NCBI GenBank assembly: GCA_001797185.1
Contig: MGOS01000111.1
Span: 11,646 to 25,063 of the forward strand
DNA from: Clostridiales bacterium GWB2_37_7
GTDB lineage: Bacteria > Bacillota > Clostridia > Lutisporales > Lutisporaceae
Length of the DNA stretch: 13,418 bases
Direction: 5' to 3'
The notes beneath the pieces were generated by a model. That model searched no databases and was not told the DNA's origin. It saw nothing but the letters and a program-made list of their open reading frames with translations. A program made the position numbers and the translations under genes. This document shows positions 1-13,248 of the stretch, piece by piece (positions within the stretch are counted from its first letter, which is position 1; every line of letters begins with the position of its first letter).

Positions 1-190
1 ATCATGAACTTCCTTGTTGGAAGTCCTCTGGCGTATTATATAAACTGTAATATTGTTCGTAAGCTTCTATCCTAGTATAACCAATTTGGCTGTCTATGAG
101 TCGATACAGGGCTGGTGGATTGCTCCTCATACCCCTCGGTATTGCCGTCGCCTTATACGTTACGGTTTCACCGAAAAAGTCAGATTTTCA

Positions 191-210
191 CTTGTAAATC
201 ACTTTACAAG
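191..210. other. Perfect 8-bp inverted repeat hairpin (CTTGTAAA-TCAC-TTTACAAG) next to the left repeat copy. On the minus strand it is followed by a T-run and is a possible terminator.
   Basis: Self-complementary sequence at 191-198 and 203-210. The minus strand downstream reads TGAAAATCTGACTTTTTCGG. Confidence 0.3.
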
Positions 211-222
211 GCGACTCTATTA

Positions 223-287
223 AATCAAAACCCTGCGTGATAGTGCTTCAACCAAAGCTCGACCAGTGCAGACGGTGATTTTACATT
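223..287. repeat. Left copy of a ~65-bp diverged direct repeat (tRNA-derived sequence), immediately downstream of the giant gene stop
   Basis: AATCAAAACCCTGCGTGATAGTGCTTCAACC...CCAGTGCAGACGGTGATTTTACATT at 223-287 matches 8221-8286 at roughly 80% identity in the same orientation. The segments CCCTGCGTGAT.GTGCTTCAACC and GCAGAC.GTGATTTTACATT are nearly identical. Confidence 0.65.
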
Positions 288-323
288 ATTCTTGCTCTTT
301 CTACTTTTTAAGGTTCAAACATA

Positions 324-3300
324 TTACATCTTCTCAACACCCTTTGTCAGCACGTCAGTCATAACCACTAGTTTTTCATTCAGATCACCGAGCTTAAGGA
401 TCGCCTGACCTATTTTATCTTCACCCTTCATGAGCTTATTTTTCAAGAAGATATCTTTGATCTCCTTCCACCTTGCAGCATCCTGTTCGTTGAGACGTCC
501 GACAATTTCCTTCCACTTAAGCATATTTGCTTCTGCTCCTTTTGTTAAGGTTTGGGAGTCATTTTCATAGGAATTCTCAACCAGCTGCATTAGCTCCGTC
601 TCATCCATTAAGGGTACAATTCTTTCTGCGATTTTGTTCATATTTCTGTAAGAGCCTTGAAGCTTGAAAGGCGGCTCTTTTCTATATTCATCAGCTTGAG
701 CTGCGGAGTAGATGTACTCCATATTAATATCCAGCACTACATCGCGCACCAGAATAAGCTTTTGAATAACAGCAACAAACTCATTTATCTCCTCAACGGA
801 GTATTGACTTTCGAAATCCACACCTTCGCGTTCTCCATTCTGTGCGATATCAATCATTATATATATATCCTTTTGACTTCTGGTTGTAAGCTTGTTTAGA
901 ATCGGATTGGAGGTCAGACAGTTTTCGATATAGCTCAGCTTAAATGCATTCTCATTTTCCCGGAGCATATCTCCAAGGTTATATACATCTGCTCTATTTG
1001 CAAGCATGTCAGGAATTTGGAACTTTTCACCACTTTCGGTGTAAGGATTTCCTGCCATAACAACAGCAAGCTTCTTGCCCCTAAGGTCATAGGTTTGCCC
1101 TACCCCATTATAAACACCTTCAATTTTTCTCTGCCCGTCACACAGAGGAATAAACTTTTGCAGGAACTCCGGGCTGCAGTGTTGGATATCATCGATATAG
1201 ATCATTACATTATTGCCCATTTTGAAAGCTAAGTTCAGCTTTCGCAGTTCTTCCCTTGCTCCTGCATTTTTCGCCATAGCAGGATCCAGTGAGGTTACAT
1301 CATTGCCAATGGCCGGGCCATTGACCTTGACAAGAAAAATGCCAAGACGATTTGCAATATACTCTACAAGAGTCGTTTTCCCATAGCCGGGAGGGGATAT
1401 CAGCAGAAGCATTCCCATTAAGTCCGTTCGCTTATCCTCTCCTGTCGTACCGATCTGTTTTGCCAGATTGTCACCAATCAATGGCAGATACACCTTGTCA
1501 ATTAGTCGATTTCTTACAAAAGAGGATAACACATCTGGCTTAAACTCTTCCAAGCGGATTTCATCTCTAAACCTCTGTGATAGGTCCTTCTTTAAAGTTT
1601 GAAACTCAATAAAGTCACGGACAACAGTTCTGTCATATTCCTTTAGCTTTTTCATAAATTCCGTATAGGAAAGGGTATACGCTCCCCCTTTAAAGCTTGG
1701 ATGGCTGCCAGTCAACTCTTTAATGATCACTTTTGTCTTTCTGTTAATGACTTTAGGGCTGCCACCGCCATCGCATTTATCAACAATCAACATTATGACG
1801 ACTTCATCCATTACGTCAAAGCCCTCATTTAAGCTTGTTTCCTTAAAGAATGCTTTCAGCCATTCCCTGACTAGATAATATGCACCTTCCAAATCTTCTT
1901 CGAAAGCCTTAAGTGACTCTGCAAAAATATCTTGAGCCTTATTCGCTTTCATATGTTGCATGAACTTGCTTTTAGCTTCATCAGCTTCTAGGCTTGCAAC
2001 AAAGGAACCATCACGCATTAATTCCTTGCAAAGATATTCTGAGGCTTCAGAAACAAAGCTCTTATCAATGAATATATAGTTACTGAAAGCCTGATTCATT
2101 TCTGCTGCAATGGTAGAAATGTAGTCTTTTAATCCAGGCTCAGTCTTGAAATACACGCTAATTTTTGCCAGCTCTTTCAACCGTCTGCAGAACTTATCCT
2201 TCATTTCCGAGCCGACTATACAATACCAGTAAAGCTTGGCAATTGCTCTTGATGAAGGACTATAGGTCAAAAGATCAATATTCATATGCAAATCTAAAAG
2301 AACCTTTAGTATTCTATAACAATCTGCATCATGAACACCTTTTGTATATCCCTCTTGATAACGAGGCTCCATAAATTTGCGAATAAACTCCAAAAGCTGG
2401 TCTTCTGTGTATGAATAGAGTGTATCAAGCGTAACGATATCCTTATTTAAAGCGGCTTCAAATATCTTATAAACAAGATACTCTGCGCGGTAAATTTCCT
2501 TGGATTCAGAAAGTACATCCTGATCCCACAAGTAGCGAAACTTTGCCAGTGTATCCGACATTACTTTTTCCCAGAAATCAGTTCCCGATATATGAAAATA
2601 TAGTTCCCCATCTTTTTGTACCATTGATAGCTCAAGCTGTTGAGTATTGTAGGAAAAATAATGTCTGCCAAATTTAATGACATCTTTTCCATGAACAAAA
2701 AGCTCCTGTCTGTCTTTTAGTTGACGGACAGCCTCTTCTTTAATGATCTTTAGCCTGCCCTCTATCTCATCAGCTTTTACACTGTCTCCCAACACCTTCA
2801 GTTGATCTATGATATCTCTTACCTTCTCAATCATGAGATCTGATGCAAGGTAACCGTTAATCTCATTAATGGTATGAAAGCCTTGAAGTCGGCTTGTGAT
2901 TCCGGTCAGTATCCGCTCAGATGTATTAAAAAGAGCAGTAAGCTTTTTATTTCGTTTTTCCAAGACCAGCTGTTTTTTCGCTACAAAGGCGTTATAAAGC
3001 TCTTCCCGCTTTTCATTGAACTTTACAATGAACTCTTCAAAATCAGCAAATTTGCCTTCCAACTCTTCAATCTGCACCATGATCTTGTTCAAATATGAAT
3101 CACATTTCTCTGTGCTGTCTGCAATGTCAAGATAATTGGCTGCTGCTTGGTCCAGGAGCTTCATTTGGGACTGGAATTGTGCAATGCCTTCTTTCTCAGA
3201 AAGCTCTGCCATACGGTTTTTAAGCTTAGCTTTTGCCAGATTTAATAATGAATAAATGGCAGAAATATTTTCTATAATCTCAGTTGTTTTCGTTGGATCT

Positions 3301-5240
3301 TCAATTTTGAAATTGCTTACAATATCAATGAGAAGTTCAAGATCCTGAGAGGATTTGGCCATCTCATTCTCAAGCTCTTTACCTGCAGAAGTCTTTGTAA
3401 TACAAGGTATTTGGCTCTGCTGACTGTCAACTCGTTCAGCATAAGGCTTAAGACCTTCAGGCACCAGCAAAAATTCAGTACATCTTTGAGTAAGCTTTTC
3501 ATTTTTTTCTTTTACTTTCTCTTCTAAAGATTCAACAAGCGCTAAATTTGTATAACGCAAAGTCTTCAGAGAGGCAATTTCTCCCCTTAAAGACCTTAAA
3601 TCTGCTAGAATCTGCACATAGCCTTCAATACTGTCAAAAGTACCATATTCAGCATTCTTTAACAGCACCTGTGCCTTTTCATCTACCTCTTTAATTTGCT
3701 TTTCAGTTGAACGCCTTATTCTTGTAACCTTTTCGAACTCAGCAACTGCTGAAGTGGCAGCCTCTTTTATGCTGCTAAGCACTGCCTTCAAGTTGAAGAC
3801 TTCCACTTTGTCCAGCCAATAATAAGAGTCCATAATGCGCTCCGTGTCTTTAACAATGTCCAGATAAATGCTTGTATAGCTCTCCCCTTTTTGAATAAGA
3901 TTATATACAACCTTGCAATCTGCCATACAGTGAACAATTTCTTTATTGCCTATTTTATATAGAATTGAGTCGCTTTTATTCTCAACTGTATAGCTTTCTC
4001 CTACATATGGAGTTTGCCAAATTTGTATGGTGTGGTTCTTACGAGGCTCATCCTCTCCCTTAAAAATCACCATTTCACCATTCTTAAAGTGTGAGTATCC
4101 TCCGCAAATTATTGGTATTTCTAAAGACTGTTCAATGATATTGTATGTATAAATAAGATATATGCCCGTTTCCATGTTGTAGAAAATGTATTGAAAATCC
4201 TCTCCATTTGGGGCTTCTATTCGCTGCTCAAAAACAAACCCTTCACAGGGCACGTCAAAGAGCTTATACTCACCACTTTGCAGATAATAGCCCTTGGGGA
4301 AGATAAGTCCATGATTATCCGGAAGCAGAACACATGAATCCTTTATCGCATCTATACGAACAACCATCTGAAGCTTTTCATTAAATATGATATAGCGGTA
4401 CTCCTTCTCCCTGTAAGGAAGAATCTTCAAGATTATCAGATTTCCTACCAGAGCATAATATATTTCAGCATCATCAAGAGTCTGGTCCATATCTTCCACA
4501 GGCTCCGAATAGATGCCTTTGCCGGTATCTGTGTTATTCTCCACCTTTATTGTAAGGTCTCCGCCTAAGGTTTCCACAAAGACCCTGTCTTTAATCGAGA
4601 TATGGGGATGTCTGCCCTCCCGATGGTCTTCCCTTTTAACTCTAGCCCAATCAAGCTCGCTTTGTTCCTTCAGTCTTACCTCATGGTCACTCCTGTTGTC
4701 TACGTAGGAAAGCTTTCCATCCTTCATAAGCCATTTAAAGGCTTTGATGTCGAAGGGGCTCTTTCCGGTCTGAAATACCATGTAAAGATAAGGACCAATG
4801 ATTGTAAACTTTGCAAAGAACGTATTTTTATAGTACTTATACAACTCCTTGAAGTCGTTCATAAATTGGTCATTGCAAATAAGCTCTAAGGATTGCTTAT
4901 GAAATGAACCGTCCTTGTATTCATAGATGGAAAAGACGTCAGAAAGCTCAACAGAAGTTTTCAATCCCATATACACGTTATAACCGAAAATAAACAAAGC
5001 TCCCACGGGAGCCATGTCTCGTGGGACGCAGTTGTTTTCAGTAATGATCTTTTCACTGCCGAGTAGGGTTGTCTCAATTGAACCAAACACGCCTCTTCTG
5101 GAACTATTTAATTTATCGAGCTTATCTTTTAGGTCACAGCCAAGTCTGTCGAGTCTGCTCTTGATTAATTCATACGTGCCGTTTTCTATACTTCCGACAG
5201 GGTTTTGCCCGCCTTGTTCAGTCATTTTTAATTCACCCAC
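324..5240 (-). CDS. Giant (1638 aa) multidomain protein with a MoxR/AAA_5-type AAA+ ATPase domain near the C-terminus. It also has a long central coiled-coil segment and an N-terminal beta-rich region of unknown function.
   Basis: One uninterrupted 4.9-kb ORF on the minus strand. Walker A is LLLISPPGYGKTTL (encoded around nt 1375-1400), Walker B is VMIYIDDIQH (nt ~1185-1205), and a sensor motif VVMAGNPYTE follows. These fit MoxR/dynein-like AAA_5 ATPases (GPPGxGKT ... hhhDE ... ATxNP). A long heptad-like K/E/L-rich stretch (aa ~480-800) indicates coiled coil. The start may be GTG at 5240 (SD GAGGTG 9 nt upstream) or the in-frame ATG at 5225 (MTEQ...). The gene lies 17 nt downstream of the flotillin stop, so it is probably co-transcribed. 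Confidence 0.85.
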   Translation of the reverse strand: MGELKMTEQGGQNPVGSIENGTYELIKSRLDRLGCDLKDKLDKLNSSRRGVFGSIETTLLGSEKIITENNCVPRDMAPVGALFIFGYNVYMGLKTSVELSDVFSIYEYKDGSFHKQSLELICNDQFMNDFKELYKYYKNTFFAKFTIIGPYLYMVFQTGKSPFDIKAFKWLMKDGKLSYVDNRSDHEVRLKEQSELDWARVKREDHREGRHPHISIKDRVFVETLGGDLTIKVENNTDTGKGIYSEPVEDMDQTLDDAEIYYALVGNLIILKILPYREKEYRYIIFNEKLQMVVRIDAIKDSCVLLPDNHGLIFPKGYYLQSGEYKLFDVPCEGFVFEQRIEAPNGEDFQYIFYNMETGIYLIYTYNIIEQSLEIPIICGGYSHFKNGEMVIFKGEDEPRKNHTIQIWQTPYVGESYTVENKSDSILYKIGNKEIVHCMADCKVVYNLIQKGESYTSIYLDIVKDTERIMDSYYWLDKVEVFNLKAVLSSIKEAATSAVAEFEKVTRIRRSTEKQIKEVDEKAQVLLKNAEYGTFDSIEGYVQILADLRSLRGEIASLKTLRYTNLALVESLEEKVKEKNEKLTQRCTEFLLVPEGLKPYAERVDSQQSQIPCITKTSAGKELENEMAKSSQDLELLIDIVSNFKIEDPTKTTEIIENISAIYSLLNLAKAKLKNRMAELSEKEGIAQFQSQMKLLDQAAANYLDIADSTEKCDSYLNKIMVQIEELEGKFADFEEFIVKFNEKREELYNAFVAKKQLVLEKRNKKLTALFNTSERILTGITSRLQGFHTINEINGYLASDLMIEKVRDIIDQLKVLGDSVKADEIEGRLKIIKEEAVRQLKDRQELFVHGKDVIKFGRHYFSYNTQQLELSMVQKDGELYFHISGTDFWEKVMSDTLAKFRYLWDQDVLSESKEIYRAEYLVYKIFEAALNKDIVTLDTLYSYTEDQLLEFIRKFMEPRYQEGYTKGVHDADCYRILKVLLDLHMNIDLLTYSPSSRAIAKLYWYCIVGSEMKDKFCRRLKELAKISVYFKTEPGLKDYISTIAAEMNQAFSNYIFIDKSFVSEASEYLCKELMRDGSFVASLEADEAKSKFMQHMKANKAQDIFAESLKAFEEDLEGAYYLVREWLKAFFKETSLNEGFDVMDEVVIMLIVDKCDGGGSPKVINRKTKVIIKELTGSHPSFKGGAYTLSYTEFMKKLKEYDRTVVRDFIEFQTLKKDLSQRFRDEIRLEEFKPDVLSSFVRNRLIDKVYLPLIGDNLAKQIGTTGEDKRTDLMGMLLLISPPGYGKTTLVEYIANRLGIFLVKVNGPAIGNDVTSLDPAMAKNAGAREELRKLNLAFKMGNNVMIYIDDIQHCSPEFLQKFIPLCDGQRKIEGVYNGVGQTYDLRGKKLAVVMAGNPYTESGEKFQIPDMLANRADVYNLGDMLRENENAFKLSYIENCLTSNPILNKLTTRSQKDIYIMIDIAQNGEREGVDFESQYSVEEINEFVAVIQKLILVRDVVLDINMEYIYSAAQADEYRKEPPFKLQGSYRNMNKIAERIVPLMDETELMQLVENSYENDSQTLTKGAEANMLKWKEIVGRLNEQDAARWKEIKDIFLKNKLMKGEDKIGQAILKLGDLNEKLVVMTDVLTKGVEKM

Positions 5241-5257
5241 AGCTCACTACACCTCAT

Positions 5258-7375
5258 TTACTCGTTACTATTCATTTGTTTTGCAAGAAAGCTAGCCGGC
5301 TCATTGGCAAAGCCCGCCTTTTCTGCAGTTTCCAGTAGCTTTACAAGTGCAGGCTTTTCTGATGAATCCGCATACTTCATTGCTTTATGAATAGCAGCTG
5401 AAATTGATAGATTTTTCAAGTCCTCTGAAGTCAGGTTGAATTTTGAAGTCAGTTGTTCCAACTGTGACTTGAAATAATCACCATCACCTGTTATAAAGGT
5501 ATTCTTGATATCACTTAATACCTCACTGTTCTTCACCATACGGTCAACGGATTTGCCTTGGGTAATCGCACCGACGATTTTGTCAAAGAACATTGTCTCT
5601 CCTCCAACAATATCAATAGATGCTGACTTCAAAGCTTCACTTATAACAGAGGCTTGGGCGTCTGCTATATCTTTTTGAATATTTATTTGAGCAAGTTCGA
5701 TTTCCTTCTCTTTATCAAGCTTAAGCTTAAATTCTTCATGACCTCTTCCTGCTTCATCAAGCGCCTTCATACTGGTAGCCTTTTTCGCAATGCCTTCTGC
5801 TTCGGCGTGATATTTTTTGGACATGATATCAACCTCAACAGATCCTGATTTTTCTCTTACAATTACTTTGGCTTCTTCACCCTTAGCTTCCGCCAGGGCT
5901 TTTATTTCGATAGCCTTCGCTTCAGCCTGCGCTGTAGCCTCCAATACTCTTGCCTTTGAGCTGCCTTCCTTCTCTATAGCTGTCGCCTTTGTCTCAATGA
6001 CACGAGCTTCTGCCAAACCGTTAGTTGCTGACTGCACAACTTGAGCATCCGCAAGGATTTTGATTGCTTCTGCTTCCTTTTCTGAAGCTTTCAGCTTGGC
6101 CTCAGACTCAATCACTCTTTGCTGTGCTGCTCTTTCAGCCACTTGCTTTGTTGCCTCTGCATTCTGAACCTCTACAATCAGATTGGACTCTGCTTCTTCC
6201 TGTGCCTTCTTTAAAGCTGCTGCCTTTTGACGTTCCGCTTCAGCAATTACCCTTGTATCTTTAATCTTCTCTTCTTCAATTACTACATCCTTCTCAACTG
6301 CCACACGTTCACGGATAACTGTCTGAATGTTTTTCTTCTCTTCCTCCAGAGTTTTTTCTTTATCAATCTCTGCAAGGGCTACCAATTTTTCTTTATCAAC
6401 TTTCTCTAACAATCTTTTCTTATCAACTCGTTCTGTTTCAACAACCTCTGTACTCTCCTTGGATTTCTGGGCTACAACAATCTGTCTTTGCTTGTTTTCT
6501 TCCGCAATGGCAATATCCTCATCAACTTTGATACGAGCCATTTCAGCCTTTAGCCGCTCTTCTTGAGAAACTTTATCAGTCTCCGCCTTCTCTCTTGCTC
6601 TGATAATTGCGATTTCTCTCTGCTGTCTAGCTTCTGCTTCTTGATGCTGTTTCTCAAGCTCAAGAATAGCCTCACTTGCTACCACATCCTGCTGCTTGAT
6701 GGTTTTTTCCTTGTTTCGCTCAATCTGATTTGCAAGAATCAATTGCTGAGAGGTTAGTTCGGTAATTTTTTTGATACCCTCTGCATCCAGGATATTATTG
6801 GCATTCAGCTTATTTATATCAGTTTGCTCTAAATAATCAATAGCAGCATCATCTAGAACGTAACCATTCAAATCAGTGCCGATAATTTGAAGAATCTCAC
6901 TTTTAAACTTCTCTCTATCGGTGTATAGTTCAACGAAATCAAACTTCTTACCTACAGTCTTCAATGCCTCGGAGAATTTTGCATCGAAGAATTCCATCAG
7001 TGTGCCCGGATCTGAAGCCTTTTGGCATCCCAAGGATTGAGCTACCTTCAGTACGTCCTCTCTGGTCTGGTTGACTCTGACGAAAAATGCAACTCTTATA
7101 TCTGCTCTCATGTTATCCTTACAGATAAGTCCGTCTTTGCCTTCTCTGGAAATCTCAACTCTTTTTACTGAAATATCCATGATTTCTGCTCTGTGTAAAA
7201 TAGGTATCACTAACATGCCGCCAAAGGAAACCATCTGACCTCCTACGCCATTTCTTACGATTACCTTACTTTGTTCTACTTTTTTGTAGAATTTAGCTAT
7301 CAAGGAAATTAATCCTATAACGATTAATACTAAAACGCCAGCAGTTATTAATGTTACTTGTGTCATGTAAGCCAT
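5258..7375 (-). CDS. Flotillin-like SPFH/band-7 domain protein (YqiK/FloT type), 705 aa
   Basis: It has an N-terminal TM helix (LITAGVLVLIVIGLISLIAKFY) followed by a PHB/SPFH domain (VIVRNGVGGQMVSF...RADIRVAFFVRV). A very long E/A/K/Q-rich coiled coil with EA-repeat flotillin character (AEAEAKAIEIKALAEAKGEEAKV) follows. Its start codon overlaps the upstream NfeD gene (ATGGCTTACATGA), indicating translational coupling. Confidence 0.9.
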   Translation of the reverse strand: MAYMTQVTLITAGVLVLIVIGLISLIAKFYKKVEQSKVIVRNGVGGQMVSFGGMLVIPILHRAEIMDISVKRVEISREGKDGLICKDNMRADIRVAFFVRVNQTREDVLKVAQSLGCQKASDPGTLMEFFDAKFSEALKTVGKKFDFVELYTDREKFKSEILQIIGTDLNGYVLDDAAIDYLEQTDINKLNANNILDAEGIKKITELTSQQLILANQIERNKEKTIKQQDVVASEAILELEKQHQEAEARQQREIAIIRAREKAETDKVSQEERLKAEMARIKVDEDIAIAEENKQRQIVVAQKSKESTEVVETERVDKKRLLEKVDKEKLVALAEIDKEKTLEEEKKNIQTVIRERVAVEKDVVIEEEKIKDTRVIAEAERQKAAALKKAQEEAESNLIVEVQNAEATKQVAERAAQQRVIESEAKLKASEKEAEAIKILADAQVVQSATNGLAEARVIETKATAIEKEGSSKARVLEATAQAEAKAIEIKALAEAKGEEAKVIVREKSGSVEVDIMSKKYHAEAEGIAKKATSMKALDEAGRGHEEFKLKLDKEKEIELAQINIQKDIADAQASVISEALKSASIDIVGGETMFFDKIVGAITQGKSVDRMVKNSEVLSDIKNTFITGDGDYFKSQLEQLTSKFNLTSEDLKNLSISAAIHKAMKYADSSEKPALVKLLETAEKAGFANEPASFLAKQMNSNE

Positions 7376-8001
7376 TTGTCAATCACTCCTTCTAGTTTTG
7401 TAATTAAGTAAAAGTCTTTTTCTTCATCTTTTTTCAAGACCAGAACCTCATCTCCCTTTTGAAGCTCTTCGTCCTTTATCGTTTTAACGTTGATAATGAT
7501 TGGACTGCCATCTCTCTTTATCTCCACTTGCCCCAAACGGCCAAATGTCATATCGCAAAGAAGTATTCCTCGCCTGCCTTCAACAATTTCTTGCTCAAAC
7601 TCAGATTTGGTCCCCTTCCTGAATGCTTTTTCCAAGGGACTTAAGATTGCTTTTGTTATCAATGCACTTATTATTAAACTTGGAAGCATAAATATACCTG
7701 CAACGATCCCCCCTGTCTTAAAGGGCAGCAAGTGCATAGCCATTGACAAAACCCAAAAAACTAGAATGATAACGCTGATAACAAATCCTATTGGAATTCG
7801 ACCTATTTTAAAAAATATCATTATGCTATGCAAAGGATCTGAAATAGCATCCACATCAGCATCCACGTCTATGTCAATATCCAAGGAAGACAGATCAAGA
7901 GCGCCAATGGTTACAAACAGCCAATACAAAACAACCAAGCCCAACAAAGTAGTAGGAATAATATTTACACCCTCAACTGCAGTCGTAAAAAGCTCGTTCA
8001 T
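7363..8001 (-). CDS. NfeD-like membrane protein (YqiJ type) encoded upstream of flotillin
   Basis: It has several hydrophobic helices (LLGLVVLYWLFVTIGAL; IGFVISVIILVFWVLSMAMHLL; GIVAGIFMLPSLIISALI). A C-terminal OB-fold-like soluble domain follows (GRRGILLCDMTFGRLGQVEIKRDGSPIIINVKT...GDEVLVLKKD), as is typical of NfeD short homologues partnered with SPFH proteins. The RBS is strong (AAAGGAGAAACGAT before the ATG at 8001). Confidence 0.85.
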   Translation of the reverse strand: MNELFTTAVEGVNIIPTTLLGLVVLYWLFVTIGALDLSSLDIDIDVDADVDAISDPLHSIMIFFKIGRIPIGFVISVIILVFWVLSMAMHLLPFKTGGIVAGIFMLPSLIISALITKAILSPLEKAFRKGTKSEFEQEIVEGRRGILLCDMTFGRLGQVEIKRDGSPIIINVKTIKDEELQKGDEVLVLKKDEEKDFYLITKLEGVIDKWLT

Positions 8002-8043
8002 ATCGTTTCTCCTTTACATATATTTGAAAATATTTACTAATGA

Positions 8044-8072
8044 ATTATAGCATAATTAGGAAATTCTTACAA
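8044..8072 (-). promoter_or_regulatory. Candidate sigma-A promoter for the NfeD-flotillin-AAA+ operon (minus strand: -35 TTGTAA, 17-nt spacer, -10 TATAAT)
   Basis: Plus-strand ATTATA at 8044-8049 reads TATAAT on the minus strand. Plus-strand TTACAA at 8067-8072 reads TTGTAA on the minus strand. The spacing is 17 nt, and the site lies ~45 nt upstream of the NfeD ATG/RBS. Confidence 0.35.
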
Positions 8073-8151
8073 TTATGAATTAAATAGCAACACCGTCATG
8101 ATTATCATTCTATTATGGCACTTTCGCACTTATTCATACAAAAGAACAAAA

Positions 8152-8172
8152 GTCTGTGATGTCGTCCATCAC
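8152..8172 (-). terminator. Hairpin CTGTGATG-TCGTC-CATCACAG, followed on the minus strand by ACTTTTGTTCTTTTGT. It is a candidate intrinsic terminator downstream of the tRNA-like element.
   Basis: 8-bp perfect stem, 5-nt loop and a U-rich tract on the minus strand. It lies ~35 nt downstream (minus sense) of the tRNA-like 3' end. Confidence 0.35.
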
Positions 8173-8207
8173 AGGCTTTCCTATGTAAAAATTGTATTCT
8201 TTTTTAG

Positions 8208-8295
8208 TGGAAGCGAGGAGAATCGAACCCCTGCGTGATCGTGCTTCAACCGATGCGACCACCAGCGCAGACAGTGATTTTACATTCCCTCTGCC
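8208..8295 (-). other. tRNA-like remnant on the minus strand. It has a canonical T-arm, an acceptor 3' strand and an anticodon-loop-like segment (GAA/Phe-like), but no pairing 5' acceptor strand. It is probably a pseudo-tRNA or integration-site relic.
   Basis: The minus strand reads ...GCATCGGTTGAAGCACGATCACGC-AGGGG-TTCGATT-CTCCT-CGCTTCC-A. The T-stem is AGGGG/CTCCT with one G-U pair, and the T-loop is TTCGATT (G53/T54/T55/C56 pattern). A 7-nt acceptor 3' strand and discriminator A follow, with no encoded CCA. Upstream, a 7-nt loop TTGAAGC with U33 and purine 37 sits between partial stems ATCGG/ACGAT. The expected 5' acceptor strand GGAAGCG is absent (AAATCAC instead) and the D-arm is irregular. 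Confidence 0.45.
8221..8286. repeat. Right copy of the ~65-bp direct repeat, contiguous with a tRNA-like 3' half
   Basis: AATCGAACCCCTGCGTGATCGTGCTTCAACCGATGCGACCACCAGCGCAGACAGTGATTTTACATT. See the left-copy entry for the comparison. Confidence 0.65.
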
Positions 8296-8527
8296 ATATG
8301 CGCCGACCTCAGACTTACAGCTTTAGTAGCTTCATAATGCGTTATCTGTCTCAAAGCTTTGACAATAACGTTCACCTCTAAATGACGCCTTATCCTAAAG
8401 TGAGGTAACAAAAAGTAAGACGAGCAGCCTAAGCTGCTAACGCGTAATTGACCTTTGCATTTAATATAATTTTCCAGCTTTTTAAAGTAACCCTGGGACC
8501 ACCGCTCGCTACCTCGATAACATTGTG

Positions 8528-8559
8528 GGACAAGGAACCTCTTTGTCCTTTCTATCTCC
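8528..8559 (+). terminator. Terminator- or attenuator-like hairpin (GGACAAGGA-ACC-TCTTTGTCC) followed by TTTCTATCTCC. It lies in the long 5' leader of the sugar-modification cluster.
   Basis: 9-bp stem (one G-U pair), 3-nt loop and a T-rich tail on the plus strand. Confidence 0.3.
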
Positions 8560-8711
8560 AATCAGCCACCAAGCGTGCAATTCGGTCAGCATCCTGAGTT
8601 CCTTGAAGATTATCTTCCACACAATGTAAGTAGCACTTTTTATGAGTGGTGAATATACTAATATATGGTGCGACCACATATAATTTAGTATGTAATTGAG
8701 AGGGATTTGCA

Positions 8712-9674
8712 ATGATTAAGCTTGCTTTGATAGGCTGTGGAAAATGGGGAAAGAATTATTTGAAAACCGTAACTGCAATAGAGGGCAGTGAATTGAAGTG
8801 GGCCTGCGACCTTGATGATCAAAAGCTAAATCAAGCCGCTCCTGCTTACCCAGAGACGATGTTCACTGAAAACAAAGCAGATATATTGAATGACAGTGAG
8901 GTGCAGGGGGTTATTATAGCCACAACACCGGTCAGCCATTACTTGCTGGCGAAGGAAGCAATAAACAAAGGCAAAGCTGTTCTCGTAGAAAAGCCTGTGA
9001 CAATTAACAGGGAAGACAGTAATGATCTGATTGAATTGGCTGCTGCACAAAATACCATATTGATGGCCGGCTACTCATTGATTTACCATCCTGCTGTCAA
9101 AAAGATAAAGGGGCTCCTGGAACAAAAAGATATTATTGATGAGCTATATTACTTGAACATGTCCAGAACCAGTTCTGCCTCTCAGGCTCTAAGCGTAGAT
9201 GTTCTTCATGATCTGGCAGTTCATGATATCTATCTTTCCCGCCACTTGATAGGGGTCGACCCCATCTGGGTAATTGCCCATGGGGAAAGTTACAGTAAAT
9301 CTTGTTATAACAACGTTATTAATATACTGATGGGTTTCCCGGATGGTAAAATAGCTTCTATATTTTCAAGTTTCATTCATACCGAAAAAACCAGGAAAAT
9401 TACACTGGTCGCATCAAAAACAAAATTAGTATTTGATGATACACAGACCACCGATAGAAAAATCCAACTCTTCGTTAATGGAGAGCTGGCGCATTTCTTG
9501 GCAGTAGAAGAAAATTTAGAACCTCTGACACAGGAGTGTCTTCATTTTATCGAATGCATTAGAGATAACAAGGAACCCCTTAGCGGCAGAGAAAATATAG
9601 ATTTTGTGGCAAAAATAACTGATTGCATTTCCGACTCTCTCGCAAAAGGCGGAGAAAAAGTCATCATCCGCTGA
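8712..9674 (+). CDS. Gfo/Idh/MocA-family NAD(P)-dependent oxidoreductase. It is probably a UDP-sugar 3-dehydrogenase of the GnnA/WbpB/NtdC type.
   Basis: N-terminal Rossmann motif MIKLALIGCGKWGKNY, 320 aa, RBS GAGAGGGA 7 nt before the ATG. It sits in a cluster with a DegT-family aminotransferase. Confidence 0.8.
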   Translation: MIKLALIGCGKWGKNYLKTVTAIEGSELKWACDLDDQKLNQAAPAYPETMFTENKADILNDSEVQGVIIATTPVSHYLLAKEAINKGKAVLVEKPVTINREDSNDLIELAAAQNTILMAGYSLIYHPAVKKIKGLLEQKDIIDELYYLNMSRTSSASQALSVDVLHDLAVHDIYLSRHLIGVDPIWVIAHGESYSKSCYNNVINILMGFPDGKIASIFSSFIHTEKTRKITLVASKTKLVFDDTQTTDRKIQLFVNGELAHFLAVEENLEPLTQECLHFIECIRDNKEPLSGRENIDFVAKITDCISDSLAKGGEKVIIR

Positions 9675-9715
9675 TGGAGACGGTAAGCATGATAATCAGA
9701 TAAGTGGGTGAAATT

Positions 9716-10702
9716 ATGTTGGTTGTAAAGAGCTATTCAAGAGAACTTGAGAATGAATGGGAGGGATTTGTCGATTCCTCAGTGAACGGCACTTTTATGC
9801 AGGAGAGAAAATTCCTGGGCTATCATCCTTCAGACAAGTTTTCAGATCATTCTCTGATATTTATTGAGGATAAGAAAATCATTGCCGTTCTTCCTGCTGC
9901 CGTAGTACAACAAGAGGATAAACGCATCCTATATTCTCACCCCGGTGCTTCCCATGGAGGGCTGATTATCAAGTCTAGTCTAAGCACTAAAAAATGCTTG
10001 AAGTTAGTAAGCGCCCTTATTGAATATTGTGCCATGACCGGTTTTGACTATATACGGCTAAAACCCGTTCCGAGGATTTACCATAGTGGGCTTTCGGACC
10101 AACTTGACTTTGCATTAAGGTTCTCGGGGTTTGAAATTGAGTATACAGAGCTGGCTACAGCCCTTGAGCTAAAGAAAGGCAAGAATCATTTTTTAAAGCA
10201 TGTGATGAGTTCCACCGCTTTGCGAAACTATCAAAAGGCACTGAAAAGTGGACTTTCGGTTATTGAAGATGCGGATATAAATGATTATTGGGCTGTGTTA
10301 GAGAAAAATCTTGAACTTAACCATAATGCAAAGCCTACACATACATTTAAGGAAATCAAATACTTAAAAGAACTTTATCCTGATAGGATCAAGCTCTTTG
10401 CTGCTTATAAAGGGTCAATCCTTACTGCGGGCGTTCTCGTGTTTTTACTGAACGAAAGAGTAATAAACTGTTTTTATATTGCCCACGACGACCGATACCA
10501 ACACATGCGGCCGTTAAATCTGGTTTTTGGTTATATGATGGAGTGGGGAGGTCAAAACAGTTTTTCTTATTTGGATTGGGGTATTTCCACTGAGGGAAAA
10601 GGAAGCCGGGTTAATACCGGGCTGTTCCAGTTCAAAGAAGGCTTTGGAGGTCATGGTGTGTTACGGGAAAGTTATTTGTATGACGTAAACAATACTAGAT
10701 AG
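9716..10702 (+). CDS. FemAB-like/GNAT-fold acyl- or aminoacyl-transferase family protein (Acetyltransf_6-like)
   Basis: The ~330-aa ORF has an N-terminus typical of the FemAB-like acetyltransferase fold (SRELENEWEGFVDSS...TFMQERKFLGYH). The start is ambiguous: ATG at 9716 (weak SD GGGTGA) or an in-frame GTG at 9704, as in the ORF track. Confidence 0.5.
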   Translation: MLVVKSYSRELENEWEGFVDSSVNGTFMQERKFLGYHPSDKFSDHSLIFIEDKKIIAVLPAAVVQQEDKRILYSHPGASHGGLIIKSSLSTKKCLKLVSALIEYCAMTGFDYIRLKPVPRIYHSGLSDQLDFALRFSGFEIEYTELATALELKKGKNHFLKHVMSSTALRNYQKALKSGLSVIEDADINDYWAVLEKNLELNHNAKPTHTFKEIKYLKELYPDRIKLFAAYKGSILTAGVLVFLLNERVINCFYIAHDDRYQHMRPLNLVFGYMMEWGGQNSFSYLDWGISTEGKGSRVNTGLFQFKEGFGGHGVLRESYLYDVNNTR

Positions 10703-10719
10703 TTTAGTGGGGTAGTGCA

Positions 10720-11415
10720 ATGAAAATAGCAGGTCATCAACCGAATTATATTCCCTGGCCGGGATACTTTGTTAAGATGGTACAGTGTGATATTTTTTTT
10801 ATTTTAGATACTGCTCAGTTTCAAAATGACGGTTCATTGGATAATAGGAATCTTATCAAAACTTCCCAAGGGACTCAGATGCTTACAGTGCCGGTCAAAC
10901 GTAAAGGCATGGGCTTGCAGCGATTTGATGAAGTTATTGTTATACCGGGTTGGAAAAGGGATCATCTTATGGCACTCAAAGTAAACTACGCAAAAGCACC
11001 TTATTTCGAAGAAGTTTTCCCGATGCTGGAGCAGGCATTGCAAGATACCGGGTATCTTATAGATACCAACATAGCTTTTATCAGGCTTGTACATGACCTG
11101 CTGGGACTGAAAACAAAGCTTGTTTTTGTATCAGATTTACCTCAATTTGCCGATCTTAGAAAAAGTGAACAGATCGCTGCAATCTGCCGCCACTTTTCTG
11201 CTGACTGTTACCTGTCCGGCGTTGGAGCGAAGGCATATATTCAACCCGAGATTTTTGAAGAACAAGGCATTCAGTTGGAATATCTGGCCTATCAGCCTGT
11301 TACATATCCACAGCTTTGGGGTAGCTTTATCCCTAATCTGTCTATCGTTGATATGTTATTTAACTGTGGGGCGGAGGACACACGCAAGCTTTTGTTGAGA
11401 GAGGTGCAAGTATGA
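10720..11415 (+). CDS. WbqC-like family protein, a common component of O-antigen/glycan clusters with unknown catalytic role
   Basis: 231 aa. The N-terminus MKIAGHQPNYIPWPGYF matches the conserved WbqC-family start (MKxAIxQPxYxPWxGYF), and the size fits. Confidence 0.65.
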   Translation: MKIAGHQPNYIPWPGYFVKMVQCDIFFILDTAQFQNDGSLDNRNLIKTSQGTQMLTVPVKRKGMGLQRFDEVIVIPGWKRDHLMALKVNYAKAPYFEEVFPMLEQALQDTGYLIDTNIAFIRLVHDLLGLKTKLVFVSDLPQFADLRKSEQIAAICRHFSADCYLSGVGAKAYIQPEIFEEQGIQLEYLAYQPVTYPQLWGSFIPNLSIVDMLFNCGAEDTRKLLLREVQV

Positions 11416-12386
11416 CCAGGGTACTGTTTTTTTCACATGATTTGAAATATACTCTTGGGCTGCCGCAGGGTTTTAGGGAACTGAACTGCCCTGTTTTTGT
11501 CCTGAGGGATTTAAGTAGAAGTTCTATAAAAGAGGCAGTTGACCACTTTAGGCCTGACCTTATGATAACAACGGGATGGGCTTACCGCCGGCATAAACGT
11601 GAGCATGTAGATGAATTGGTCAAAAGAGCTGCTAAATATAAGGTGAAACATGTCTATTGGGCAACTGAAGATCCAAGATGGACCCAAGAGTGTTCCTTCA
11701 AGTGTATTGAAATCTATAAACCTGATGCAGTTATGACCATACATCCTGATAGTGTAAATAAATACAGGGAGCTGGGGCTTCCTGCCAGGCATCTGGATTT
11801 TGGCTGCAATCGGTCGTTCAATAAGGTTGAACCTCCAAGCAGTAAATATAATTATGATGTGGCTTTAGTCGGAAACGGCGGCAAAGCCTGGGAATCCTAT
11901 CGGAAGGATAGCGTTCAGATACTTTTAAGGCCCTTGGTGGAAAGGGGCTATAACCTTGCGATCTGGGGCAAGAGATGGGACCGTTTCAACGAGGAGTTGA
12001 TGGGTTTTAAGCTTCCGAAGCATATGCTCAAGGGAGAGCTGCCCTATGAGGAAACCAACAAGGTTTATAATTCAGCCAAAATAATAATCGGTTTGCAAAA
12101 CGACCAAACAATGCTGACTTCCCGGACTTTTGAAGTACTGGGTTCAGGCGGGTTTTTGCTGACAGTATCTACGAAGTCCGTCAATCATTTGTTTACAAAC
12201 AATGTTCATCTGACATGTTCATCCTCCCCGGTCGATACAGTCAGGCTTGTTGATTACTATTTGAAAAATGAGGCGGAGCGTCATGCAATAGCACGAAACG
12301 GGCAGCAGGAGGTCTACTCAAAGCATACGTATAAGGAACGTGCCAGACAAATTCTTGATTTCTATAGTTTGGTTGAAAGGAATTGA
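11412..12386 (+). CDS. CgeB-type (Glyco_trans_1_2-like) glycosyltransferase family protein
   Basis: 324 aa. The C-terminal motif RTFEVLGSGGFLLT resembles the RxFEalacG signature of CgeB/DUF3880-type GT-B proteins. Its ATG overlaps the previous stop (ATGA) and is preceded by SD GAGAGAGGTG. Confidence 0.55.
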   Translation: MTRVLFFSHDLKYTLGLPQGFRELNCPVFVLRDLSRSSIKEAVDHFRPDLMITTGWAYRRHKREHVDELVKRAAKYKVKHVYWATEDPRWTQECSFKCIEIYKPDAVMTIHPDSVNKYRELGLPARHLDFGCNRSFNKVEPPSSKYNYDVALVGNGGKAWESYRKDSVQILLRPLVERGYNLAIWGKRWDRFNEELMGFKLPKHMLKGELPYEETNKVYNSAKIIIGLQNDQTMLTSRTFEVLGSGGFLLTVSTKSVNHLFTNNVHLTCSSSPVDTVRLVDYYLKNEAERHAIARNGQQEVYSKHTYKERARQILDFYSLVERN

Positions 12387-12387
12387 A

Positions 12388-13248
12388 ATGGATAATCAGA
12401 CAACTATTAAACAGAAGGTTTCTCTAATGGGTACTAGCATTACTGGCGAATCTGATGCAAAGGTTACTTTTTATCCAGCCCCGCCTAATACAGGTGTAAT
12501 ATTTATCCGTAATGACCTGCCAGGCTGCCCTAGAGTAAAATGTTCATTTGAAAATGCAAAGGTTGAGCATCGATGGACGTCGCTGATACATGAAAATATT
12601 CGTATTGTCCATACAGAGCATGCTCTGGCAGCAATTTCAGGGTTGGGGTTGACTAATGTATTTGTTGAGTTGGAACAGCCCAGCTTGCCTGTGACACCGG
12701 ATTACGGCAGTAAAGAGTTTGTACGGGTTCTCTTGGACGCTGGAATAGAAGAACAACAATTTATGCAGGAAAAGATTAAAATACGTAAGCCAATTATTAT
12801 TTTTAAAAGAGATAGATTTGAGAGCTTTAAAAATGAAAAGCTGCTGATAGCACTGCCATACGATGGGTTCAAGTTAACTTATATTCTTGATTATCCTAAT
12901 CTGCCGCTATTATATCAAAATGTTGAAATAGACATTAACCCCCAAACCGTTATTAAGGAATTAGCGGATGCTCGTTCTTATGTAATTGAATCGGAGTTTG
13001 AAGAAATGATAAGCTTGACCGGAAAGGTCAGCGCAAACGATCTGGTAGTCAGAACCGGAGCTGAACGAGGAGAATGGCAATGGCCAAATGAACCTGCCCG
13101 CCATAAAGCACTCGATCTTCTTGGGGACCTTAGCTTACTTGGGAAAAAGATTCAGGGGCACGTGATAGGTATCAGATCCGGTCACCGGTTAAACCACGAG
13201 TTATGCAAAAAAATTTATAGGGAGTGTAAAGATGATTGCTTTGGCTAA
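12388..13248 (+). CDS. lpxC: LpxC-family deacetylase (UDP-3-O-acyl-N-acetylglucosamine deacetylase fold)
   Basis: Strong motif-level match to LpxC: TIKQKVSLMGTSITGESDAKVTFYPAPPNTGVIFIRNDL; IVHTEHALAAISGLGL; ARHKALDLLGDLSLLG; GHVIGIRSGHRLNHEL. The preferred start is the ATG at 12388 with SD AAGGAA 5 nt upstream. The longer ORF from 12340 overlaps the preceding gene and lacks an SD. Confidence 0.85.
   Translation: MDNQTTIKQKVSLMGTSITGESDAKVTFYPAPPNTGVIFIRNDLPGCPRVKCSFENAKVEHRWTSLIHENIRIVHTEHALAAISGLGLTNVFVELEQPSLPVTPDYGSKEFVRVLLDAGIEEQQFMQEKIKIRKPIIIFKRDRFESFKNEKLLIALPYDGFKLTYILDYPNLPLLYQNVEIDINPQTVIKELADARSYVIESEFEEMISLTGKVSANDLVVRTGAERGEWQWPNEPARHKALDLLGDLSLLGKKIQGHVIGIRSGHRLNHELCKKIYRECKDDCFG

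Follow-up and report, generated by a model that had tools for sequence, protein, structure and literature searches.

How did a three-gene operon come to lie between two diverged copies of a direct repeat in a clostridial genome? The locus that raises this question occupies a 13,418-nucleotide (nt) stretch of Clostridiales bacterium GWB2_37_7 (assembly GCA_001797185.1, contig MGOS01000111.1, positions 11,646 to 25,063 of the forward strand), hereafter the window. An earlier note, made from the letters alone, had read its repeats as tRNA-derived footprints of site-specific integration. We trace both copies to the 3′ part of a transfer-messenger RNA (tmRNA, ssrA) gene: the right copy belongs to a tmRNA copy of nearly full length, and the left one forms the first exon of a tmRNA 3′ fragment interrupted by a group I intron. 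Sequence comparison indicates that the operon was probably inserted at a tmRNA-derived site, displacing the 3′ end that resided there.

The direct repeat itself is real. A repeat search paired positions 223–258 with 8221–8256 (36 nt, 86% identity, spacing 7998) and 262–287 with 8261–8286 (26 nt, 92% identity, spacing 7999), spacings that differ by one nucleotide and so make the blocks a single repeat interrupted by a 1-nt indel. When the two intergenic regions are aligned locally, 56 of 66 columns are identical (85%) and the score is 45, which is ~15 standard deviations above the scores of 1000 dinucleotide-preserving shuffles (14.2 ± 2.1, maximum 24). The two copies are co-oriented, both on the minus strand. 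Their longest identical run, the 13-mer AATGTAAAATCAC, opens the repeat at its 5′ edge, from which the stretch continues as AATGTAAAATCAC...GGGGTTCGATT, and a second identical run, the 11-mer CCCTGCGTGAT (plus strand), lies near the T-arm. The distances given in the earlier note also hold, with 36 bp separating the stop codon of open reading frame 324–5240 from the left copy and 219 bp (~220 bp in the note) separating the start of open reading frame 7363–8001 from the right copy. No terminator was found in the 36-nt spacer at 288–323.

To follow the repeat past the window we used scaffold_147 of ENA ERZ28564357 (98 kb, groundwater), which was reached via its encoded proteins; window coordinates equal those of the extended locus, L009, minus 1289, and L009 has the orientation of the window. 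The homology of the right copy runs on through 8220–8146, across the T-stem 3′ strand, the acceptor strand and the terminator. The left counterpart of 8218–8146 comprises 74 nt (81% identical) at L009 1251–1179, outside the window, displaced by ~270 nt past a 258-nt insertion. These alignments indicate that the true duplicated unit measures ~150 nt, in which the 65-nt block is continued by the remainder of the T-arm, then the acceptor end and a terminator. As 65-bp units the repeats do not bracket the operon exactly, contrary to the earlier note: the unit is ~150 bp long, takes in the 3′ end of the gene, and is intron-split on the left. The repeat junctions read identically in four independent assemblies and are not an assembly artefact, as this agreement demonstrates. 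Several independent assemblies of the same population have contigs that stop at window positions 7228–7231, 8213 and 8528–8536, the latter two within the tmRNA copy; these stops may reflect strain variants or graph branches.

The right copy (8221–8286, minus strand) lies within a nearly full-length tmRNA copy at 8205–8540 on the same strand. The Rfam tmRNA model RF00023 (model positions 1–374) aligns to 8205–8539 with 44.3 bits, against a gathering score of 47 (E = 2.3e-16, E-value mode, 8100–8720). Minus-strand positions 8232–8205 read AGGGG TTCGATT CTCCT CGCTTCC A CTA, which supplies a T-arm, an acceptor 3′ strand and a discriminator, all intron-less (T-stem 3′ strand 8220–8216, acceptor 3′ strand CGCTTCC 8215–8209, discriminator A 8208, CTA 8207–8205). 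A tag frame at 8458–8429 (GCA AAG GTC AAT TAC GCG TTA GCA GCT TAG) encodes AKVNYALAA followed by a stop, and ARAGORN under relaxed settings reads the same tag. Given the RF00023 alignment, the T-arm and the tag frame, we assign the right repeat copy to a tmRNA gene copy, of which it covers the P2 3′ strand, T-stem 5′ strand and T-loop. The repeat does derive from a tRNA-like gene, as had been supposed, which RF00023 identifies as tmRNA (ssrA), P2 3′ strand plus T-arm, and not as a tRNA. Past the 3′ end of this copy lies a terminator module (8140–8204, minus strand; hairpin 8174–8154 plus a T-run) that is 81% identical to the module following the second exon on the left. Standard RNA searches pass over these features: Rfam at gathering thresholds reported nothing in the window, the tmRNA and intron matches coming only from E-value mode on short stretches, and ARAGORN with default settings reported nothing in the window or in any Clostridial locus. 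Its only default call among the loci compared is in a Microvirga locus (L033) unrelated to this lineage.

Similar divergent tmRNA-like copies adjoin a gene for a GFO/IDH/MocA (GFO) protein in four genomes (window 8205–8711, L017 7223–7739, L030 9435–10001 and L016 9827–10001). Three of these genomes keep the tag frame in the GFO-adjacent copy, with tags that read AKVNYALAA, PKVNYTLAA and ANENYTLAA. Among the features of a functional tmRNA, the window copy has the T-arm and the tag; an acceptor 5′ strand for the 7-bp stem with G3:U70 is not found in the window, L017 or L030. Pairing by hand found no acceptor 5′ partner, and the minimum free energy fold was uninformative (z = −0.7). ARAGORN at default settings called no gene after in silico excision of the islet, of the intron or of the neighbouring polysaccharide module. 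The gene called by ARAGORN under relaxed settings places the 5′ domain in the PK1 region and was taken as a false 5′ call. The candidate acceptor strands GGTGGCT, GGAAGAT, GGAGATA and GGAACTC were rejected, as they showed no covariation with the 3′ strands across genomes or would form U3:U70 or A3:U70. At the Rfam-aligned acceptor position, L030 and L016 carry xxGGGCG, which looks like a decayed GGGGGCG. Because no acceptor 5′ strand is recognizable, excision restores no gene that ARAGORN calls at default settings, this position appears decayed and the L030 intron has lost part of its sequence, we regard 8205–8540 as probably a displaced, 5′-defective, nearly full-length pseudogene; it is unlikely that it instead has an unconventional 5′ end.

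On the far side of the operon, the left copy (224–287, minus strand) corresponds to exon 1 of a displaced tmRNA 3′ fragment and contributes six T-loop nucleotides in addition to the P2 3′ strand and T-stem 5′ strand. Where other copies are conserved, it has degenerated (GGGT TTTGAT instead of GGGG TTCGAT). Base 223 is the first base of a group I intron, of which the first 223 of 258 nt lie in the window (1–223, minus strand) and which runs off the window start. Rfam model RF00028 matches the extended contig at L009 1522–1263, minus strand (model positions 1–253, 42.8 bits, gathering score 50, E = 4.5e-9); on the window alone the match is truncated and scores 18.7 bits. The intron is inserted in the T-loop after loop nucleotide 6. 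Its −1 base is a U, wobble-paired to a G in P1, and its last base is a G, the omega-G located 34 nt past the window start at L009 1255. On the minus strand the left copy ends in ...CACGCAGGGTTTTGAT, the intron following directly, so that the layout reads ...GGGTTTTGAT / intron TTAATAGAGTCG...ATAATGCCG / CCCCCTCGCCTCCACCA. Past the intron end ...ATAATGCCG come CCCCCTCGCCTCCACCA and AAAAAGAATAATAATTTTACATAGAGAAGCCTGTGATTGTACGCAATCACAGGCTT; exon 2 and CCA occupy L009 1254–1238, and the acceptor end ...CCTCCACCA is followed by a terminator resembling that after the right copy. The boundaries were set by an intron-less orthologue in metagenomic contig L047 (copy Y, GGGGTTCGAT-T-TCCCTCACC) and by the homologue in L030, whose intron is homologous and occupies the same T-loop site. 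The L030 intron (9435–9600) is without ~97 nt comprising P3′, P8 and P7′, between short direct repeats CATAG(A/T)CAGC, and this deletion derivative is probably unable to splice. Exon 1 amounts to only 64 nt in the window, and upstream of it stands the stop codon of a 1638-amino-acid (aa) gene, so no complete tmRNA gene surrounds it. The intron appears structurally complete and stranded in a stretch that amounts to the operon's 3′ untranslated region.

The site was compared with related genomes by scanning representative genomes with the neighbouring GFO/IDH/MocA protein, which gave 26 loci, 21 of them from close relatives (≥69% identity) and nearly all of these Clostridia-type. Three loci of relatives (L030, L017 and L016) have a tmRNA copy beside the GFO gene. 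The empty site that the earlier note proposed to look for is represented by L030, in which the same tmRNA copy stands beside the same GFO gene, single and uninterrupted through the intron into TCCCCTCACCTCCACCA and a terminator, without the operon; the match is imperfect, as set out below. In L017 the tmRNA copy is followed by ~6 kb encoding an AraC-type regulator and three proteins without informative domains, and then by a 250-nt intron-less tmRNA 3′ fragment. L016 keeps a remnant of the copy; the cargo that comes after it, ~6 kb with genes for a DUF4236 protein and a triple-AAA ATPase, ends in a ~30-nt T-arm/acceptor fragment. No recombinase domain is present in the cargoes of L017, L016 or the window.

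The far flank was located by a metagenome scan, which led to one contig, L047. It carries the flank that lies beyond the window array at 88–97% identity (exon 2, terminator, and genes of 153 and 260 aa), together with an intron-less T-arm and, after the 260-aa gene, a further tmRNA 3′ fragment of 220 nt. On the source scaffold the genes past the left copy encode an SDR protein, aconitase, isocitrate dehydrogenase and citrate synthase, and this flank is core chromosome. Judged by the features that the Islander approach uses, relatives provide an empty site and alternative islands, with the flanks downstream of the array not conserved there, and a co-oriented fragment stands at the far end, on the 3′ side, reaching the gene end once the intron is removed; no recombinase domain is found in the islet. 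The right copy is ~95% identical to copy c2 of L017, and the left copy is 97% identical to L047 copy Y over its 3′ part. Immediately 5′ of the T-arm, the intron-bearing copies of the window and L030 share the variant AGCTTTGGTTGAAGCACT, a link that assigns the entire left copy to the resident end.

What is observed comprises the tmRNA and intron identities, the extension of the repeat and, in relatives, an uninterrupted site and alternative cargoes; from these we infer the direction of the event, the position of the crossover and the recombination machinery. The ancestral state would have been a single uninterrupted tmRNA copy running from its body through the P2 3′ strand to a T-arm that held the group I intron after T-loop nucleotide 6, followed by the acceptor end, the terminator and the core genes. 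An 8-kb unit would then have entered by recombination inside the tmRNA sequence, bringing in order an intron-less tmRNA 3′ part, a terminator, a promoter and the NfeD-like, flotillin-like and DUF3686/AAA+ ATPase genes. The incoming 3′ part would now complete the upstream copy (8205–8286), the resident intron-bearing 3′ part having been pushed to the far side (287 to past the window start). A crossover in the T-loop would make the left 65-nt block islet-derived. A crossover at the 5′ edge of the repeat would leave the whole left copy resident, and everything from the 65-nt block and intron-less T-arm to the acceptor end and terminator now joined to the upstream copy would have come with the islet. 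The most likely position, by sequence comparison, is the 5′ edge at the 13-mer, which is favoured because the left copy shares its T-arm-adjacent variant with the L030 and L047 copies and because the 13-mer is identical in both copies. The cargo is thereby bounded at roughly 288–8204 (operon, promoter and terminator module); under this crossover the replacement tmRNA 3′ end would extend to 8286.

Several observations count against this insertion. The empty site is imperfect, since L030 has a shorter tmRNA body, the 97-nt intron deletion and a different downstream flank. The copies, at 85% identity, have no long identical core; compared as att cores, they share at most the 13-nt run and then the 11-mer. 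The 65-nt segment exists as two sequence types whose positions are swapped between the window and L017, with smaller blocks mosaic, and the 5′ boundaries of the displaced fragments vary by genome (~30, 65 and 250 nt). Regeneration of the upstream copy is in doubt, as RF00023 scores 44.3 against the gathering score of 47, ARAGORN is silent and no 5′ strand is detectable; in none of the window, L017 and L030 did an exhaustive search of 270 nt upstream find a 7-mer able to pair at ≥6 of 7 positions with the acceptor 3′ strand that resides there. Gene tables covering scaffold positions 61,220–90,570 list no tyrosine or serine recombinase within ~10 kb upstream of window position 8001 or ~10 kb downstream of window position 324. 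The search for a candidate attP gave no matches among IMG/VR viral contigs, only weak unrelated ones among phage records and none among plasmids. Finally, the base composition of the islet matches the host and bears no foreign signature. The earlier description as a footprint of site-specific integration is accordingly supported as regards insertion into a tRNA-like gene (by the tmRNA copies, L030, L017, L016 and the chromosomal flank); its "site-specific" part is weakened by the lack of a nearby recombinase and by mosaic copies that are 85% identical with an identical run of only 13 nt, and homologous recombination is a mechanism of equal standing. Its remark that no integrase, excisionase or transposase is present agrees with Pfam, which identified no recombinase domain in the three cargo genes.

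Much of this evidence bears on how the unit arrived. If it was inserted, an integrase acting in trans on a decayed or cis-mobilizable element is a tentative explanation with somewhat less than an even chance. It is possible, with a somewhat smaller chance, that the islet instead spread among related Clostridia by homologous recombination between flanking tmRNA-derived sequences, with no site-specific recombinase; either a circle bearing a tmRNA 3′ fragment could have been inserted in Campbell fashion, or DNA taken up from outside could have replaced the site by double crossover. The absence of a recombinase gene from all three islets, the variable fragment boundaries and the host-like composition fit such a route, as does a homology that is long (~150 nt, into the terminator) and diverged where a short identical core would mark an att site. 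The type swap and the mosaicism look more like repeated homologous exchange than clean site-specific events. Against it, 85% identity over 65–150 nt is a poor substrate for RecA-dependent recombination, and different cargoes at one spot, in one orientation and always with a 3′ end fragment are the signature of integrases that target tRNA and tmRNA genes (PMC4383910); integrase-less islands in ssrA arrays are, moreover, usually read as decayed or cis-mobilizable (PMC3146451).

The repeat could also predate the operon, the tmRNA 3′ region (or a pseudo-tRNA or small RNA locus) having been duplicated first and the operon having landed between the copies later in an unrelated event, an alternative that the earlier note had raised. 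Such a history would suit the pseudogene-like upstream copy, which implies no selection to maintain a regenerated gene, and tmRNA fragments are numerous in these genomes. We nevertheless consider it improbable, for the copies differ by an intron and at 15% of positions and each resembles a copy from another genome more than its partner, the single copy in L030 is uninterrupted, and three cargoes would each need their own landing between duplicates. Least credible is a generic dispersed intergenic repeat, a chance similarity or an assembly artefact, a reading already effectively refuted. The terminator module (TT(G/T)(A/T)TACATAG plus hairpin) does recur by several copies and by the operon of another locus, L039, and there are more than two tmRNA-like pieces per locus. 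The alignment score, the match to the tmRNA covariance model and the agreement of the four assemblies across the junctions all speak against it, as does the distribution of the repeat: no copy occurs in the 19 further Clostridia-type loci that surround the same cluster, and every copy found is co-oriented tmRNA 3′ sequence at a module boundary, which runs counter to the common dispersed element that the earlier note had named as grounds for abandoning its proposal.

Insertion at a tmRNA-derived site is further informed by the operon, which comprises three minus-strand genes. The first (7363–8001) encodes a 212-aa membrane protein that is always first in a conserved three-gene set; it has no Pfam match, which leaves the name NfeD given in the earlier note without that support. 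The second (5258–7375) encodes a 705-aa SPFH/Band-7 (flotillin-like) protein and the third (324–5240) the 1638-aa protein, with DUF3686, DUF7902 and AAA+ ATPase domains, which has 5150 homologues at E ≤ 1e-20, mostly in Clostridia and often with a PspC gene nearby. The promoter region (8002–8075, minus strand) matches TTGTAA-17-TATAAT with an upstream TG (8072–8044). The three-gene set occurs widely among Clostridia, in contexts that are unrelated. Its closest copy, in L039, is 84% identical at the nucleotide level over window 8075–326 and no further, and lies in another context; since this homology stops at 8075, the transferable unit starts ~75 nt upstream of the first gene. Neither L039 nor more distant operon homologues have the 65-bp repeats. 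That relatives might carry the operon without repeats had been put forward as a point against the proposal, and this is partly the case; as the L039 operon is free of them, the repeats belong to the insertion site and not to the operon.

The surroundings of the L039 operon nonetheless recall the site. The giant gene there passes at its stop codon into CCCCAGCTCCGCCAAATAAG and a terminator, a close match to the 3′ end and terminator of L017 copy c3, and a terminator module of the post-tmRNA type also lies upstream of the operon, so that the module flanks it where no tmRNA body is present. The module, AA(A/T)AAGAA..TT(G/T)(A/T)TACATAG plus a hairpin, recurs after tmRNA 3′ ends; instances are window 8140–8204, L009 1179–1237, L039 6950–7010 and 14945–15020, L017 14470–14540 and L047 190–270. 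The last stretch of the L039 contig (15010–15101), GTGCGCCCGGCATGGGCGCAATCTAACGGGTGAGAGTCCCGAACACG..., resembles the start of a group II intron; Rfam, applied to this short sequence at E ≤ 0.001, gave no match. PADLOC models gave only marginal P-loop matches to the cargo proteins of the window and L017, and DUF3686 is not mentioned in the literature searched. The conserved and unstudied three-gene set is a transferable unit in at least this lineage.

The operon is one module among several. The ~170 nt from the tmRNA copy to the start codon of the divergent GFO gene (8541–8711) are ~90% conserved, in four genomes, and are probably the promoter and leader of a polysaccharide cluster, the edge of the next module. 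A plus-strand hairpin at 8527–8549 (GGGACAAGG-AAC-CTCTTTGTCC), where the tmRNA homology has its 5′ border, scores terminator-like, and its stem covaries between genomes. The cluster encodes GFO, FemAB-like, WbqC, glycosyltransferase, LpxC-like, DegT and ATP-grasp proteins and recurs at 82–90% aa identity in many Clostridium and Anaerosolibacter genomes; in the window, 8712–12386 and 12340–13248 hold an LpxC-family deacetylase gene within this Clostridial polysaccharide cluster. Past the window end, a third tmRNA piece (L009 ~17045–16880, minus strand; ~15590–15755 in window coordinates) is a 5′ fragment that starts with GGGGTCAGGCACCGAGGTTTCGCAG, has the tag frame TKVNYALAA and ends just after the tag-stop hairpin, its last 105 nt being 82% identical to window 8518–8417. 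As this piece lies upstream of the polysaccharide cluster, the cluster too is bracketed by tmRNA pieces. The L017 version of this cluster likewise comes after a tmRNA 3′ end, that of a further copy, which is cut by the contig end. We read the locus from these alignments as a tandem array of islets on an ssrA-derived site, which seems to have been built on a tmRNA copy without a usable 5′ acceptor strand. An IS21-type pair (a transposase with a Mu-transposase C-terminal domain, and IstB) at L009 19187–20883, ~2 kb upstream of the tmRNA 5′ fragment, represents the only mobility genes near the array, ~10 kb away.

One extension of insertion at the tmRNA-derived site is speculative and, in our estimation, quite unlikely: the defunct ssrA copy could serve as a landing pad at which recombinase-less cassettes, each with its own partial tmRNA 3′ end and terminator, are swapped between related genomes of this lineage when the tmRNA-derived repeats recombine. 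Each replacement would then also strip the T-loop intron from the upstream copy, an instance of intron loss by island insertion, and leave the complete intron in the 3′ untranslated region of the inserted operon. More generally, tmRNA-derived sequence and a group I intron can go unannotated, as ARAGORN and Rfam at gathering thresholds are silent here, and island-mapping pipelines that rely on tRNA and tmRNA gene calls and an integrase filter would therefore miss this array.

The locus can be placed among known systems, and none of these findings overturns current understanding. The genes for tmRNA are the most enriched island targets, and a regenerated gene with a displaced fragment is a general principle of islands (PMC4383910). 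Dehalococcoides genomes carry tandem ssrA islands with ssrA 3′ repeats at their boundaries, some without integration modules, for which cis-mobilizable elements (CIMEs) and island accretion have been invoked (PMC3146451). Tandem arrays of ssrA islands and T-loop introns are each known, and the locus combines them; what is unusual is the stranded complete intron, the three recombinase-less cargoes at one pseudo-ssrA site and the silence of standard RNA finders. Because an integrase is lacking and regeneration of an intact gene is in doubt, we file the locus as an integrase-less islet in an ssrA-derived array and not as a canonical active island. It offers a compact example of integrase-less modules accreting at an ssrA-derived site, with mosaic repeat exchange and a tmRNA copy parted from its intron.

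As in the described ssrA islands (PMC4383910, PMC3146451), a tmRNA copy is followed by cargo and a co-oriented 3′ fragment, the island supplies the replacement 3′ end, alternative cargo occupies the site in relatives, and the modules are arranged in tandem, some without integration genes. Unlike in those islands, no integrase lies in or near any module seen, the upstream copy is without a usable 5′ acceptor strand, the fragment boundaries vary between genomes, the displaced fragment bears an intron, and in place of a short identical core there is a repeat ~150 nt long and 15% diverged. CIMEs likewise consist of cargo between att-like repeats, without recombination or transfer genes and in arrays with other modules, whereas here the repeats are only putative att sites known from sequence, and neither a cognate integrase nor a helper element was found. 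The supplements of the tmRNA database paper contain no entry for this sequence. Intron-form tmRNA genes carry a group I intron in the T-psi-C loop and predominate in Bacillota (Nawrocki, Petrov and Williams 2025, PMC11915505); the present intron agrees with them in lying after T-loop nucleotide 6, the main subsite (position 7), in pairing a U at −1 with a G in P1, in its terminal G and in its Bacillota host. It differs from them in residing in a 64-nt orphan fragment downstream of an operon while the complete-looking copy is intron-less, and in having a homologue, in L030, that has lost P3′, P8 and P7′.

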